Shown: piece by piece, positions 22,523 through 28,191 of the stretch
Layout of the letters: every line of letters starts with the position of its first letter
Position numbering within the stretch: position 1 is the stretch's first letter
Origin: Chthonomonadales bacterium
GTDB lineage: Bacteria; Armatimonadota; Chthonomonadetes; Chthonomonadales; CAJBBX01
DNA: 64,000 bases
Reading direction: 5' to 3'
Assembly (NCBI GenBank): GCA_013360745.1
Contig: JABWBA010000010.1
Span: 646-64,645, forward strand
Translations under genes and position numbers: made by a program
Notes under the pieces: model-generated
What the model was told of the DNA's origin: nothing
What the model saw: the letters and a program-made list of their open reading frames with translations, nothing else
Database searches by the model: none

Positions 22523-22823
22523 CCCGGCGGCTGAGCTTGTCGAAGCCCCGGTGGCTGAGCTTGTCGAAGCCGGGAGCCAAGAGCTAAGCGCCGAGTGCTG
22601 AGAGCTGGATCGTCGTAGGGGCAATTCATGAATTGCCCGTACCAGACCGGTCCGTCCTGAGCTTGTCGAAGCCCCGGTGGCTGAGCCTGTCGAAGCCGGG
22701 AGCCAAGAGCTAAGCGCCGAGAGCTGAGAGCTGCATCGTCGTAGGGGCAATTCATGAATTGCCCGTACCAGACCGGTCCGTCCTGAGCCTGTCGAAGCCC
22801 CGGTGGCTGAGCTTGTCGAAGCC
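22523..22823. repeat. Mosaic tandem array, period 126 bp, about 2.3 units
   Basis: CTGAGC(T/C)TGTCGAAGCC at 22531, 22555, 22657, 22681, 22783 and 22807. GTAGGGGCAATTCATGAATTGCCCGTAC at 22615 and 22741. Five degenerate GAGCTRA heptamers per unit. Confidence 0.95.
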
Positions 22824-22831
22824 GCCCCGGC

Positions 22832-24187
22832 TCAAATCTGGAACAGCTTCGCATAAAGAGCGTCGGTGCGGCCGCCGAGCGCCTCCAATCGTGCCGCCGC
22901 GTCGGGGTCGCCTCCCGCATGGAGCCGCATCAGGCGCCCCTCCTCGACGCAGAGCTCATCATGGGCGGGAAAGACCTCCCGCATCAAGAAGAGAGCGTAC
23001 TTCACCAGCCGGAACGGCCCGTAGGCGCGGGCGATCTGACCGGGGAGCGCCTCGACCGCGACCGACCATAGCTTCCGGATGCTCGTCGTCAGGTCGTCGA
23101 ACTCGAGGCGGCCCGAGAACACGATGGTGTAGTACCAGCCGAAGAGCTCACCCCGCTCGCACCCGTGCGCGTCGCTCACGCCGACGATCGGCACGGATCG
23201 GCCTCGCGCCCTCTCTTCGTGGTACCGGGCCACCTGCAGCGTATTGGAGTCGATCTCATGGAGATGGTAGCCGCCGATGAGCTCATACGCGTCGTAGGGC
23301 TGGGTTGCGAAGATGTGGGAGGTGAGGGCCCCGGCCGGCGCATAGCGGTGGCCGGTGAACCAGTAGGGATGGCAGAAGATGCCCAGGCCGCCGAACTCCC
23401 GGATTTTCGCGAGGGTCCAGACGGTCGAGGCGTATTGATAGGGGTCCACGCCCGGCGGCAGAGCCTGCTCACCCGACGACTGGTCCCTACCCGGCGGCTG
23501 AGCCATACCCGGCGGCTGAGCCTGTCGAAGCCGCTCCTCCAACGCCGCAACCTCAGCTCGATAGGCCTCCTCGTCGGCGAACAGCGCATTGACGCTGCGC
23601 CGACCGCCGAAGTTGACCATATGCACCGGGTTGCCGGGCGGATGGACCTCCTCGCCGGGGTACATGCGCAGGTCGCACCGTACGCCGTCGAACGCGGCGA
23701 TCGCCTCGAGCGAGGGCTCATACTGACGGTGATCGGTGAGGGCCATGAAGTCGAGCCCGATCGATCGGCAGGAGGCCGCCACGTAGGCGGGCGCTTCTCT
23801 TCCGTCGGATCGAGACGAGTGCATGTGCAGATCGCCCTTGTAAGGGAACCTGCCCGCCAGGTCGGGACCGACGGAATAGACGCGAAACTCTCCCAGACGG
23901 CGGCGCTGATCGCCCTGAACCGCCTCGAGGAGGAACACGTGCTCCTGCTCCCCCTCGAGGTACTGACGAAATCGGAGGCTGCGCCCATCGCGCACGACGG
24001 CCGGCTTGTTCGCCTCCGGCCAGCCGCTCTGCAGAGAGAACTCCTCCGTGGGATAGTAGGTGACCTCATACTCCACGCCATCGGTCACCGCGACGTGGTC
24101 GAACAGCGGGGTGACGGTGATCTCGACCGGAGTATCAGCCCGGGCGACGAGGGGATGGACGTCGAAGATCCGACCTTCAGGACGCAT
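22832..24187 (-). CDS. PHP-domain metallo-phosphoesterase
   Basis: GDLHMHSSRSDG, LTDH, GEEVH, CHPYW and GVSDAH motifs, RBS GGAGG. Confidence 0.9.
   Translation of the reverse strand: MRPEGRIFDVHPLVARADTPVEITVTPLFDHVAVTDGVEYEVTYYPTEEFSLQSGWPEANKPAVVRDGRSLRFRQYLEGEQEHVFLLEAVQGDQRRRLGEFRVYSVGPDLAGRFPYKGDLHMHSSRSDGREAPAYVAASCRSIGLDFMALTDHRQYEPSLEAIAAFDGVRCDLRMYPGEEVHPPGNPVHMVNFGGRRSVNALFADEEAYRAEVAALEERLRQAQPPGMAQPPGRDQSSGEQALPPGVDPYQYASTVWTLAKIREFGGLGIFCHPYWFTGHRYAPAGALTSHIFATQPYDAYELIGGYHLHEIDSNTLQVARYHEERARGRSVPIVGVSDAHGCERGELFGWYYTIVFSGRLEFDDLTTSIRKLWSVAVEALPGQIARAYGPFRLVKYALFLMREVFPAHDELCVEEGRLMRLHAGGDPDAAARLEALGGRTDALYAKLFQI
23490..23532. repeat. Copy and a half of the CCCGGCGGCTGAGCCTGTCGAAGCC element inside the PHP gene
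   Basis: CCCGGCGGCTGAGCCA followed by CCCGGCGGCTGAGCCTGTCGAAGCC. Translates as RLRQAQPPGMAQPPG. Confidence 0.9.
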
Positions 24188-24233: not shown

Positions 24234-26255
24234 TCAATGGGGTTCGAGCTTCACGTAGTCGAGGCCGAACATATAGGACTTGACCGCCGCCGGATTGGCT
24301 CCGACGATCTCCACGGTCAGACGCCGTTCCCCTGCCGACAGATCGAGAACCCCGAGGTCCAGCTCGCCGGTCGGTACGACGCCATTGTTGTAGAGGTCGA
24401 TCGGCCCGCCGAGCTTCTGACCATCGAGCGAGATCTGGACGATGCCGTAGTCGATCGCCCTGGTCAGCTGCGCCTTGATGCCGTAGCGCCCGGCCTTCTG
24501 AACGGGTATGGCGAGGGTGAGCGTGTCGCCGGGTTTGGCCCCGGTCCACCAGAGATGCGCACCCTTGCTCCACTCGCCCTCGAACCCGCCCATATCCTGC
24601 GATGCGGTTCCTCCTCCGGAGGCGCCGAGGACCTTGATGGTCTCTCCCTCGAGGGCGCCCTTGACGGCGAATGGCTCGGGCAGCTTGAGATCGAAGTAGC
24701 CGAGTCGCTCGCTGAGCGGCTGGGGCGTGTACGGATCGCGCCCGCCGGAAACGAGGTACCAGTAGGCCGTTGCGGCGTAGAGTGTGGGGCGGTCGTTGGG
24801 ATAGTACTTCTCGATGGTTCCGGTAAAGGACTTCAGGAACGGCACGTTATCGGCGATGTGCCATCGGTTGACCGATGCATGGCCCTTGTTATTGCCGCTG
24901 TTGAACGGCTGATTGTGATAGGCGTTGAAGAACAGCGCCGGATTGCACCACGCGTAACCGAAGTAGTCCTCGGAGCCGGTGCCGAAGGTGGAGGGGAACG
25001 TCTCGCCGTCGACGTAGAACATCTCGTCGCCCTCGCCCCACCAACCGCCTTTTGGGTTCCAGACGTGCAGGTTGACGCCGACGTACCGGCCCGCTCCCTC
25101 GGTGGTCAGCATCGTCCACTCAATGCCCCGACCCGGCTGTGTCGGATTGAAGGCGTCCCGATGCCATTTGGCGTGAAAGCGAGCGTACTCGGACGCCGGT
25201 CGGCTTAGCGGCGCATGGGTCACTTCCGCCCGAAGTCGGCGAGCGGCAGGGCCGTCATTGACCACCTCGACCACCGCCTCGCTGGCAAAGGGCATGAACC
25301 AGAAACAATAGAACCCATCTTCGGTCATCCCTAGCGGTAGGGATCTGTACAGGTTGATGCCCGGCTGCGACCCGAAGAAGTCGCCGAGCGGCGCCCAGAC
25401 CGTCGTCTCACCATCGAACGTGATCTTCAGCGCCAGCTCCCGAAGGGCCAGTGTCTCATCCTCCCGGCTCTTCAGGCCCTCCACCTTGATCTTGAGGCCC
25501 GAGATGGCGCGCGCTCCGGTCAGGCGAGCGATCGTTTGCGTTTCATGGGAGCGGACCGAGAACGAACGCCGAGCGGTTTTCTGTCCGGGCCGAACGCCCG
25601 CCGGATCGGTCCCGAGCCGGTGGGTCAAGACATCGTTGGCCTGATCGAGGGCCGCGAATTCCGCCGGGCTGAGGAGACGGGTGAACGTCGGGAGTACCGT
25701 ATCGGCAGGATAGGTGGTGTACGTGAAGTGGTAATAGGCGCCCCAGTGATCATCGGCCACGATCTTGCAGGATTTCTTGAACGGGATCGGCACATAAAGG
25801 TTCTTGCCGAGCGAGGCATCGTGGACGAGCGCGGGATACGTGAACGGCGGCTGCGATCCGTCGAAGTACTGGCTGAACCGGAGATCCGCCGCCGGGTCGG
25901 TTGCCCCGTCGAGATAGATGCGGATGCGGCCATCCTGCGGCTTCGCCGACCAGATGCGCCAGATAACGCCCGGACCGTCGATTTCGGCGAAGACCTGCTT
26001 GCCGTTCTCCCGTCGGATGATGCCGTCGTTGTCGCCGTTGGCGTCCCAGCCGACGTACTCGCCGGACTGGCTAATGTAGCTCGCACGGTCGTAGCTGGAC
26101 CACTGGGCGTTCTTGACGCCGGGCTTCGGCGCAAGCGCCAGGCTCTCAAGGTCCGTCAGCTTGCGAATCAGGTCGACGTATGTGTATGTCTCAGCGCGCG
26201 CCCCGGCCAGCGCCATCAGGCAGCCCGCCACGATCAGGGCCGTCCGTCCAATCAT
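24234..26255 (-). CDS. DUF2961 (GH172) glycoside hydrolase with C-terminal CBM-like domain
   Basis: Signal peptide, GPGVIWRIWS, WWGEGDEMFYVDG and GTGSEDYFGYAW motifs. Confidence 0.88.
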   Translation of the reverse strand: MIGRTALIVAGCLMALAGARAETYTYVDLIRKLTDLESLALAPKPGVKNAQWSSYDRASYISQSGEYVGWDANGDNDGIIRRENGKQVFAEIDGPGVIWRIWSAKPQDGRIRIYLDGATDPAADLRFSQYFDGSQPPFTYPALVHDASLGKNLYVPIPFKKSCKIVADDHWGAYYHFTYTTYPADTVLPTFTRLLSPAEFAALDQANDVLTHRLGTDPAGVRPGQKTARRSFSVRSHETQTIARLTGARAISGLKIKVEGLKSREDETLALRELALKITFDGETTVWAPLGDFFGSQPGINLYRSLPLGMTEDGFYCFWFMPFASEAVVEVVNDGPAARRLRAEVTHAPLSRPASEYARFHAKWHRDAFNPTQPGRGIEWTMLTTEGAGRYVGVNLHVWNPKGGWWGEGDEMFYVDGETFPSTFGTGSEDYFGYAWCNPALFFNAYHNQPFNSGNNKGHASVNRWHIADNVPFLKSFTGTIEKYYPNDRPTLYAATAYWYLVSGGRDPYTPQPLSERLGYFDLKLPEPFAVKGALEGETIKVLGASGGGTASQDMGGFEGEWSKGAHLWWTGAKPGDTLTLAIPVQKAGRYGIKAQLTRAIDYGIVQISLDGQKLGGPIDLYNNGVVPTGELDLGVLDLSAGERRLTVEIVGANPAAVKSYMFGLDYVKLEPH

Positions 26256-26350: not shown

Positions 26351-26369
26351 TGCGGCGTCGGCGGCGGGT

Positions 26370-26389
26370 GCGACAGGCTCAGCCGCCGG
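26370..26389. repeat. Degenerate, inverted-orientation copy of the GGCTGAGCCTGTCG element
   Basis: GCGACAGGCTCAGCCGCCGG is the reverse complement of CCGGCGGCTGAGCCTGTCGC. Confidence 0.75.
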
Positions 26390-26526: not shown

Positions 26527-28191
26527 ATGCGTCGGATAATCGGAGGTGCGGGGATGGTCGCGGCGCTGCTCTGGGCGTCGCTCGGGATCAGCCGCTCGGA
26601 TTCCGGGGCGAGTCGGCTGAAGAAGCTGCCGGTGCAGCATCGGGTCGATGGAAGGCCGCTGCTCGGTTCGTACAACGTCGACGACGTCAACGGCATCGCC
26701 CGGATGGCCGCCATGGGCATGAACCTCGTCCTCGGCGGCGAGGAGCATCTCGACCCGGCCAAACCGCTCGGGAGTGCCTGCGCGGAGCACAACGTTCGCG
26801 TGCTGTACCATCTGACCCAGCACATCTACGGCAAGCCCCGGCTGGCGGCGCGCGTGACCCCGAGTCAGACCACCATCCCCCTCTACACCGAGGGCGCCGG
26901 CGCATTCCCCAAGCAGGGCACGATCCAGCTCGATGACGAGGTCATCGTCTACGAGGATTCCACCGAAAACACGCTGCTTCGGTGCCATCGAGGGTCAGCC
27001 GGAACCAAACCCGCCGCGCACCGGGTCGGCACGATTCTCTTCTGGCCTGATCAGGCGGCGGCCGAGATCGGGCGCGTTCGCAGTTCGCCGAATCTCTGGG
27101 GCTATTACGTGCTGGACGATAGCCCGGGCGACGCTCTCTCCGCGCTGACGGCGCTCTATCGGATCGCGAAACGACTCGATCCGGGGCGGGTCGTCGCGGC
27201 CGGATACGGGAGCGCCGGTTCGTTGTGCAACTTCGGCCCCGGCGTCTGCGACCTGATGCTTGTCTACTGGTACCCGGTCTTCGCCAGCGGCAACTACGAT
27301 CCGCTGCTCACCAGTCATCAGGTCCAGTGGATGATGGCAGAGGCCCGACGCATCGTGCCAGGGATCCCGTTCGCGGGAGTCTATCAGACCTTCGATGCGG
27401 CGTTTGAACGCCCGGAGAACCTGGGCAAGGGGCTGCCCACCCCCGAGCAGCTGCGCAAACAGATGGAGGACTTCGTCCGTGAGGGGGCGTGCGGGCTCAT
27501 CGCCTATCTCGGAGGCGTGCCGATCCTCCCCGGCTGGGAGACGCGGCCGGCGCTCCAGCGGGTGATTCAGGAGACGAACGCGGAGATCCGCGCGAAAGGC
27601 GGGCTGCTGCTGCCGCCCGAGCCGCCGGATATGGCTGCGGCTCGAACGTTCCCGATGGGATTCTGGAGCCGGGCCTCGAGCATCCCGGGCATTCCGCCGG
27701 CGTGGCACGTGATCCTGCCCTTTGGCCCCACGGGCGCGGCAGGCCTCGACGCGCAGTATCCGCCGGATCGGGAGATCCGCCTGGACGCCGAATACCCGTC
27801 CGACCAGCTGTCGATCGGCTGGATCGTGCGGCGGACGATCGGCGGCGTCATCGGCCTCGGCGAGATCGCGGCGATGGCCTCCGCGACACGGGAGGCGATG
27901 GCCTACGCCACCTGCGAGGTCATCAGCCCCGCCGAGCAAAAGGCGCTGCTGGCCTGCGGGAGCGACGACGACATGATCGTTCGCCTCAACGGCGAGGAGA
28001 TCGTACGGCGCGTGTACGCCGGAGGTCTCAAGAGAGACGCGGAACGATGGGAAATCACGCTGCGGCAAGGGGTGAACCGCCTCTTCGTCAAGGTGCATAA
28101 CAGAGCCGGCATGTGGGGCTTCCAGGTCCGCCTTCTGAGCAAGGACGGGCAACCGCTCCGCGGATTACGATTCAGCCCTGCCGCTCCATAA
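26527..28191 (+). CDS. Secreted glycosidase-like barrel protein with an inserted module and a C-terminal beta-sandwich
   Basis: Signal peptide, PNLWGYYVLDDSP, C-terminal GSDD..VRLNG...LRQGVNRLFVKV, RBS GGAGGTG. Confidence 0.7.
   Translation: MRRIIGGAGMVAALLWASLGISRSDSGASRLKKLPVQHRVDGRPLLGSYNVDDVNGIARMAAMGMNLVLGGEEHLDPAKPLGSACAEHNVRVLYHLTQHIYGKPRLAARVTPSQTTIPLYTEGAGAFPKQGTIQLDDEVIVYEDSTENTLLRCHRGSAGTKPAAHRVGTILFWPDQAAAEIGRVRSSPNLWGYYVLDDSPGDALSALTALYRIAKRLDPGRVVAAGYGSAGSLCNFGPGVCDLMLVYWYPVFASGNYDPLLTSHQVQWMMAEARRIVPGIPFAGVYQTFDAAFERPENLGKGLPTPEQLRKQMEDFVREGACGLIAYLGGVPILPGWETRPALQRVIQETNAEIRAKGGLLLPPEPPDMAAARTFPMGFWSRASSIPGIPPAWHVILPFGPTGAAGLDAQYPPDREIRLDAEYPSDQLSIGWIVRRTIGGVIGLGEIAAMASATREAMAYATCEVISPAEQKALLACGSDDDMIVRLNGEEIVRRVYAGGLKRDAERWEITLRQGVNRLFVKVHNRAGMWGFQVRLLSKDGQPLRGLRFSPAAP

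Follow-up and report, generated by a model that had tools for sequence, protein, structure and literature searches.

We analyzed a 64,000-nucleotide (nt) stretch (hereafter, the window) of contig JABWBA010000010.1 from a Chthonomonadales bacterium whose genome comprises 3.32 Mb in 127 contigs, with 63% GC. A gene on its minus strand encodes a 451-amino-acid (aa) protein with a PHP-fold, phosphoesterase-like domain, and within this gene lies, in frame, a 24-nt unit that belongs to a repeat family dispersed through the genome. Very probably, judging from the sequence comparisons below, the unit was copied into an inter-helix loop of a functional enzyme. The principal features of the locus, in window coordinates, are as follows.

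22832 to 24187, minus strand: host open reading frame (ORF) of the ORF list, encoding 451 aa with an N-terminal beta-sandwich and a PHP-fold metal-dependent phosphoesterase-like domain.
23468 to 23527, minus strand: insertion of 60 nt (20 codons) encoding RQAQPPGMAQPPGRDQSSGE, absent from all orthologs, with edges that are ambiguous by a few nucleotides owing to flanking microhomology.
23508 to 23531, minus strand: module A, one full repeat unit of 24 nt with the sequence GCTTCGACAGGCTCAGCCGCCGGG; it forms the first 24 nt of the insert, its in-frame translation is (L)RQAQPPG, and the exact 24-mer recurs elsewhere.
23471 to 23506, minus strand: extra 36 nt (ATGGCTCAGCCGCCGGGT plus AGGGACCAGTCGTCGGGT) encoding MAQPPGRDQSSG, present in the window allele and, by alignment, not in the sister allele (L001/P0122).
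23444 to 23461, minus strand: ancestral codons for LPPGVD (CTGCCGCCGGGCGTGGAC), conserved in orthologs.
22523 to 22824, minus strand: composite repeat array starting 8 nt past the stop codon of the PHP-fold gene, with 2.3 copies of a 126-nt unit.

The translation of the host ORF contains EERLRQAQPPGMAQPPGRDQSSGEQALPPGVDP, identical to the peptide quoted in an initial annotation of this DNA, which had proposed that an intergenic repeat was inserted in frame into the PHP enzyme. That proposal holds, as the exact 24-nt unit lies within the coding sequence and the frame is intact. Positions 23443 to 23534 of the plus strand read ...CCCGGCGGCAGAGCC...CCCGGCGGCTGAGCCATACCCGGCGGCTGAGCCTGTCGAAGCCGC, the final 24 to 26 nt of which match the unit of the intergenic array. 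The annotation had also expected orthologous PHP proteins to show a gap of about 20 aa at this point, and exactly 20 residues opposite RQAQPPGMAQPPGRDQSSGE are missing from all 29 aligned orthologs (55 to 76% identity); the DNA of related genomes shows the same 20-codon gap as the protein alignment. The flanks of the insert, ...L and LPPGVD, are conserved in the orthologs, and the peptide LRQAQPPGMAQPPGR spans it. The 18-mer GGCTGAGCYTGTCGAAGC has eight matches in the window, namely, six in the array (22529 to 22822), one in the coding sequence (23514 to 23531), and one with two mismatches (26367 to 26384). Shuffled sequences gave a mean of 0.15 matches, and 0 of 100 shuffles reached eight. 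The exact 24-mer of the coding copy is also found at C18:6600 and C18:24575, on another contig of the genome, and 56 sites match it with two or fewer mismatches.

The host protein belongs to a large family (>1,400 homologs, mostly 428 to 436 aa). Its sequence signal is weak, with 19.4 bits for Pfam PHP and 61.7 bits for the NCBIfam CehA/McbA metallohydrolase; because both scores fall under the respective cutoffs, we regard the protein as a member of a divergent PHP subfamily. An AlphaFold model built with 30 input sequences had a mean predicted local distance difference test (pLDDT) score of 88, and Foldseek searches with this model returned the PHP phosphoesterases 3e38 and 2anu and RNase AM (7ug9) as the best matches, with a probability of 1.0. 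Together with this fold, the protein has the N-terminal HxH metal motif of PHP-domain metal-dependent phosphoesterases (H121/H123), which is invariant among the aligned orthologs. The model places helix 206-222 ahead of the insert and helix 249-264 behind it, with pLDDT values of <50 for residues 225 to 239. The initial annotation had described a new peptide loop that interrupts a helical region. The loop stands, but the helix interruption does not: since the insert is placed between two helices, it is predicted to lengthen a surface inter-helix loop and to break no helix.

The sequence is found well beyond this one assembly. Twenty-four contigs from independent assemblies of many runs, a 456-kb NCBI contig among them, encode the identical 451-aa protein. 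The same 90% cluster contains a 439-aa allele, the DNA of which (L001) is 98% identical to that of the window outside the indel. The two alleles differ by 22 synonymous and 6 nonsynonymous substitutions, and the resulting ratio of nonsynonymous to synonymous rates (dN/dS) of 0.086 indicates that both encode a protein under strong purifying selection. The chance that the insert reflects misassembly across repeats, or that the gene is decaying, is therefore next to nil. Assemblies do break at the neighboring array, as that explanation would have it; however, the identity of the product on 24 independent contigs excludes an assembly artifact, the frame is intact, and the model is confident outside the insert. 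The 24 contigs and the dN/dS value refute both forms of this explanation. Most independent assemblies of the gene stop about 37 nt past its stop codon, inside the composite array, which systematically breaks short-read assemblies.

The sister allele reads CGG CTT CGA CAG GCT CAG CCG CCG GGT GAG CAG GCT CTG CCG CCG GGT, and its insert is therefore 8 aa long, exactly one 24-nt unit. As this allele has one unit only, the additional 36 nt in the window represent, from the alignment, a length change separate from the 24-nt insertion. The first 18 of these 36 nt (ATGGCTCAGCCGCCGGGT) are identical to the preceding 18 nt at 16 of 18 positions and are significantly repeat-like in a shuffle test, and Tandem Repeats Finder reports a period of 18 with 1.9 copies at the insert. 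The 20-aa form was represented by 24 contigs in the collection and the 8-aa form by 1; scans of metagenome and genome contigs with gapped patterns yielded no further alleles of the insert.

The same 18-nt tandem period in the window allele, as well as the 19/21 identity between CAGGCTCAGCCGCCGGGTGAG and the following CAGGCTCTGCCGCCGGGTGTG, could be taken to mean that the insert arose purely locally, with the Q-A-L-P-P-G codons of the gene itself duplicated in tandem, and that it resembles the repeat by coincidence. We consider this very improbable. The match to the repeat includes CTTCGACAG, which lies upstream of any segment that could have been duplicated, and it is exact over 24 nt with respect to another contig; a 21-nt duplication would add 7 aa rather than 8; and the unit is found in frame in unrelated genes, too. 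Local duplication was thus rejected as close to refuted, and only orthologs that lack the repeat family and yet carry CTTCGACAGGCTC at this position would revive it.

The repeat family from which the unit was probably copied (GGCTTCGACARGCTCAGCC) has about 57 copies in the genome at one mismatch or fewer. Most of them lie in composite arrays, together with a hairpin (GTACGGGCAATTCATGAATTGCCCCTAC) and heptamer satellites. In the array next to the PHP-fold gene, each 126-nt unit combines the hairpin GTACGGGCAATTCATGAATTGCCCCTAC with heptamer repeats and a pair of 24-nt modules. This array has the same orientation as the coding copy and could possibly have been its donor. The coding copy carries the GCCGCCGGG variant, which elsewhere is found mostly at array ends, the internal units being GCCACCGGG. 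Read directly, the unit has a length that is a multiple of 3 and is free of stop codons in five of the six frames. Reading frames should therefore rarely be disrupted when it is inserted or changes in copy number. The folding of a single unit is no better than that of shuffled sequences (-2.3 kcal/mol, z = +0.75); two units in inverted orientation form a structure of -35 kcal/mol (z = -12). The copies are strongly clustered: contig C18 (107 kb) has 36 of 76 matches, and contig C91 (52 kb) has 13.

A lone copy is also present on the far side of the next gene.

26364 to 26389, plus strand: degenerate copy of module A, inverted, 92% complementary to positions 23509 to 23534, with two mismatches to the 18-mer.

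This copy, which had been noted in the initial annotation at 26370 to 26389 and is real, lies between two divergent genes. One is the GH172 glycosidase gene (24234 to 26255, minus strand), which precedes the PHP-fold gene on the same strand; the other occupies positions 26527 to 28191 on the plus strand.

Other genes of this genome also contain in-frame copies of the unit. In a GH51/DUF1080 arabinofuranosidase (C18:7021-9568; L022 2022-4568), there is a 47-aa in-frame run made of 5.5 copies of AELVEAPV, which is the 24-nt unit read on the other strand. All 15 aligned orthologs of this enzyme are without the run, and strains that are 98 to 99% identical have versions of 34, 47, or 60 aa. A 253-aa secreted protein (contig C48) has a two-unit patch, with PGLRQAQPPGLGQAQPP where two orthologs have KSGEQPAAVKKM. 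Further candidates, identified from ORF context alone, are LRQTQPPG and GSASTSSA in linkers or termini of two FHA-domain proteins and RLRFDRLSGR directly past the signal peptide of a PBP5-like carboxypeptidase. These three candidates, all on contig C99 (L024), have the following positions.

C99:30775 to 32316, candidate in-frame copy.
C99:33692 to 34717, candidate in-frame copy.
C99:35663 to 36952, candidate in-frame copy.

Among the various proteins that carry the unit, here and in relatives, five different frames are used. Where the unit meets the PHP, GH51, and C48 genes, its CCGCCGGG end adjoins Pro/Gly codons of the host gene, a placement that suggests microhomology-guided copying. The GCCGCCGGG variant likewise sits beside Pro/Gly codons at the coding junctions. 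Within the LPPGVD codons of the PHP-fold gene, CTGCCGCCGGG is identical to CAGCCGCCGGG of the repeat at 10 of 11 positions and is likely to have been the microhomology anchor.

The Pro/Gln-rich insert might alternatively have been kept because it serves the enzyme in a new way, for example as a flexible lid, as a site of interaction, or in regulation. The strong purifying selection that persists on the gene would fit such an adaptive loop, as would the far greater abundance of the 20-aa allele (24 contigs versus 1). Nevertheless, the length of the insert varies freely among close strains in both the PHP-fold and GH51 genes, the insert segment is predicted with low confidence, and the use of five different frames in different proteins means that no particular peptide is selected. 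Taken together, an adaptive origin appears quite improbable.

These observations lead us to propose that a unit was copied from a repeat array, the nearest of which starts 8 nt past the host stop codon, into the codons of the inter-helix loop. The route would likely have been template switching or a gene-conversion-like break repair, with the anchor provided by microhomology that the unit's CCGCCGGG end shares with the Pro-Pro-Gly codons of LPPGVD, a conserved motif. Slippage would then have altered the length of the insert. The insertions that survive would be those in surface loops and linkers, as neutral or nearly neutral extra loops.

Several points weigh against such copying from the repeat family. 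The search for a donor returned no copy that is identical beyond the 24-mer, and none of the units in the adjacent array match all 24 nt. The second 18 nt of the extra 36 nt (AGGGACCAGTCGTCGGGT) are not significantly repeat-like (22 of 200 shuffles score as well), and a genome-wide search allowing three or fewer mismatches found no other copy of them. Directly past the unit, CAGGCTCTGCCGCCGGGTG is identical to the 3' part of the unit at 19 of 21 positions; this likeness leaves the precise edges ambiguous, as well as the number of units that entered (one or about two). The alleles are not polarizable, and the 8-aa form could itself have arisen from the 20-aa form by deletion. Finally, the initial annotation had held that the element is actively colonizing coding sequence. 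Colonization is supported by the GH51 and C48 copies, by the candidate copies on contig C99, and by the length polymorphism among strains, whereas the insertion itself and the word "actively" are deduced from this polymorphism and from a lineage-specific expansion and not from a witnessed event.

That expansion is apparent from a comparison with relatives. The approximately 57 copies in this genome contrast with none in a genome of the same genus, and most of 40 relatives lack the unit. A few of them carry one to four copies of identical sequence; one such genome (G022) has a single copy. The g15 genomes G015 and G020 also have one copy each, in frame in an RHS/YD-repeat protein, where it reads RWLSLSKP or RRLSLSKP.

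L032 967 to 1878 (G015): RHS in-frame copy, TQARWLSLSKPRCNG.
L033 1468 to 2130 (G020): RHS in-frame copy, TQSRRLSLSKPQANG.

The unit is not confined to these relatives. A scan of species-representative genomes detected the exact 24-mer in >118 stretches from Bacteroidota, Chloroflexota, Acidobacteriota, Actinomycetota, Planctomycetota, Spirochaetota, Proteobacteria, and others. Many of these cross-phylum copies are in frame in long ORFs, most of them as judged by ORF context alone. In two Bacteroidota HsdM methyltransferases, one unit, read as ASTSSATG, occupies one common loop (CLWF..N[KR]-ASTSSATG-..FRDR).

L058 5272 to 6981 (Algoriphagus chordae): HsdM with the ASTSSATG copy.
L142 2 to 748 (another Bacteroidota genome): HsdM with the ASTSSATG copy.

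The Algoriphagus HsdM also has a second, unrelated-looking insert (...AKQSQSLDGTDCRAALAMTE...), which may derive from another repeat family.

The 24-nt unit is also linked to a nuclease gene. The genome has a single small UPF0213-type GIY-YIG gene (C51:16666-16959; L025/L037), and this gene is flanked by the unit. Its product matches Pfam GIY-YIG with 56 bits, an NCBIfam scan gave no match, and its nearest solved relatives in the PDB are the UPF0213 proteins BH0048 and EF2693. The AT-rich start of the gene suggests a G+C content below that of the genome. The closest homologs of the nuclease among the relatives, in the genomes G009 (81% identity) and G019 (62% identity), which represent two other genera, are flanked by the unit as well. 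The cassette in G009 (L036 1480-2110; G009:C18, approximately 84.7 to 85.3 kb) lies between hsdM and hsdS and consists of a 73-nt hairpin unit, the nuclease gene, and another 73-nt unit. At its borders is a 40-nt direct duplication of the 3' end of hsdM, such that the end of the ORF is a copy of the C-terminal ...ELGYGG of HsdM; from its sequence, the duplication reads as an insertion footprint that preserves the end of the host gene. In other phyla, a nuclease with 53 to 74% identity to the C51 protein is present at 8 of the 118 unit-bearing loci, always at a distance of 16 to 192 nt from a unit. More distant small GIY-YIG genes (L040, L043, and L046, in genomes G007, G022, and G024) have their own direct or hairpin repeats of 47 to 102 nt, and the nuclease of G024 is flanked by the canonical Neisseria-type CGTCATTCCCGCGAAAGCGGGAATCC. 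That each distant nuclease lineage has its own repeat suggests, by analogy with what was reported for Ssn/SRM, that nuclease and repeat co-vary.

The nuclease may supply the DNA breaks that start the proposed copying. It might even, in place of passive template switching, drive mobility in the manner of a homing element or a miniature inverted-repeat transposable element (MITE), with GIY-YIG cleavage near CCGCCGGG-like sites and repair that copies a unit from another locus. This idea draws on the flanking units in three genera, the presumed insertion footprint in G009, and the fact that all eight nuclease homologs among the 118 loci lie <200 nt from a unit. In addition, the persistence of one identical 24-mer across phyla implies constraint and horizontal spread, and published SsnA nucleases cleave single-stranded DNA beside flanking hairpin repeats (PMC11893778). 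However, cleavage by the C51 protein is suggested by analogy, SsnA was described as a modulator of transformation and not as a transposase (PMC11893778), and slippage alone accounts for copy-number changes in multiples of the unit. The coding copy is, moreover, a single non-hairpin arm without the terminal inverted repeats of a MITE and without a clear target-site duplication; the 19/21 near-repeat at its flank can be read either as microhomology or as a duplication resembling that of a target site. On balance, mobility driven by the nuclease seems rather unlikely. We put forward somewhat less hesitantly, although still tentatively and at a little under even chances, a broader proposal in which the unit (GGCTTCGACARGCTCAGCCRCCGG) would be the cognate repeat of a horizontally spreading UPF0213/Ssn-like GIY-YIG clade. 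Given a 24-nt unit that is open in five frames, the nuclease and its repeat would work across phyla as a general generator of 8-aa insertions in loops and linkers (of PHP enzymes, GH51, HsdM, and RHS proteins), seeded by nuclease breaks and expanded by slippage. The sequence GGCTTCGACARGCTCAGCCRCCGG is identical from Bacteroidota to Chloroflexota, Actinomycetota, and the Chthonomonadales lineage.

The copying of the unit into the PHP-fold gene can be compared with several known systems. Rickettsia palindromic elements (RPEs) create protein sequence in frame (PMC10969869), and the initial annotation had cited them as a parallel. The parallel is apt for the outcome: a repeat dispersed between genes and inside ORFs, always with preservation of the frame, adds a peptide at permissive surface positions of conserved enzymes, in several unrelated genes per genome, and the insert is in frame and absent from orthologs (29 of 29 gaps). 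It fails for the type of element. RPEs are palindromic, about 100 to 150 bp long, and restricted to Rickettsia; the insert described here is 24 nt (sister allele) or 60 nt long, and it consists of one unit or a tandem run that does not fold singly. In further contrast to RPEs, five frames of the unit are in use, its copy number differs among strains, and its sequence is identical across many phyla.

The Ssn GIY-YIG single-strand nucleases with flanking NTS/SRM hairpin repeats (Chenal et al. 2025; PMC11893778) resemble the present system in having a small single-domain GIY-YIG gene with a short repeat on both sides, tens to hundreds of copies of that repeat genome-wide, and different cognate repeats for different nuclease lineages. 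The arrangement of such a gene flanked by a dispersed repeat was found for C51, G009, G019, and 8 of the 118 loci. The Ssn nucleases belong to CDD cd10448 and cleave single-stranded DNA beside the repeat, which may also hold for the C51 protein. Points of difference are that its nearest solved relatives are UPF0213 proteins and that the published SRM pattern, HGTCWY...RNCYNB, does not match the unit: none of its 28 matches in the genome were near a unit, and their total was under the chance expectation. A word search of PMC11893778 returned no mention of "in-frame," and a literature search for GIY-YIG genes flanked by repeats resembling repetitive extragenic palindromes (REPs) found nothing directly relevant.

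A looser likeness is that to the REP/REPIN-RAYT systems, in which a single-copy nuclease gene is likewise flanked by a short repeat that populates the genome and inverted pairs form strong hairpins. The flanked gene in our case is GIY-YIG and not an HUH/Y1 (IS200/IS605-like) transposase, and REPs are extragenic, whereas the 24-nt unit is repeatedly found inside genes. With coding minisatellites, the system shares units that are a multiple of 3 (24, 18, and 39 nt) and alleles that differ among strains by whole units without frameshift (8 versus 20 aa and 34, 47, or 60 aa). Unlike in coding minisatellites, the repeat was apparently imported from a genome-wide family and is not the host gene's own sequence.

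The 24-nt unit is thus a real source of new protein loops, and one with precedent. The PHP-fold gene offers a clean, polarized case of a protein loop gained from noncoding selfish DNA, as the preinsertion state is seen in 29 orthologs and both one-unit and longer alleles occur in natural populations. On the practical side, the units break assemblies and can mislead the annotation and alignment of conserved enzymes. Puzzling peptides in predicted proteins of many phyla (LRQAQPPG, AELVEAPV, ASTSSATG, FDKLS, and LSLSKP) can now be tied to a specific 24-nt repeat that accompanies a small GIY-YIG nuclease. Should this enzyme indeed drive the copying, Ssn-type systems would gain a second role, the remodeling of coding sequence, beyond the modulation of transformation.

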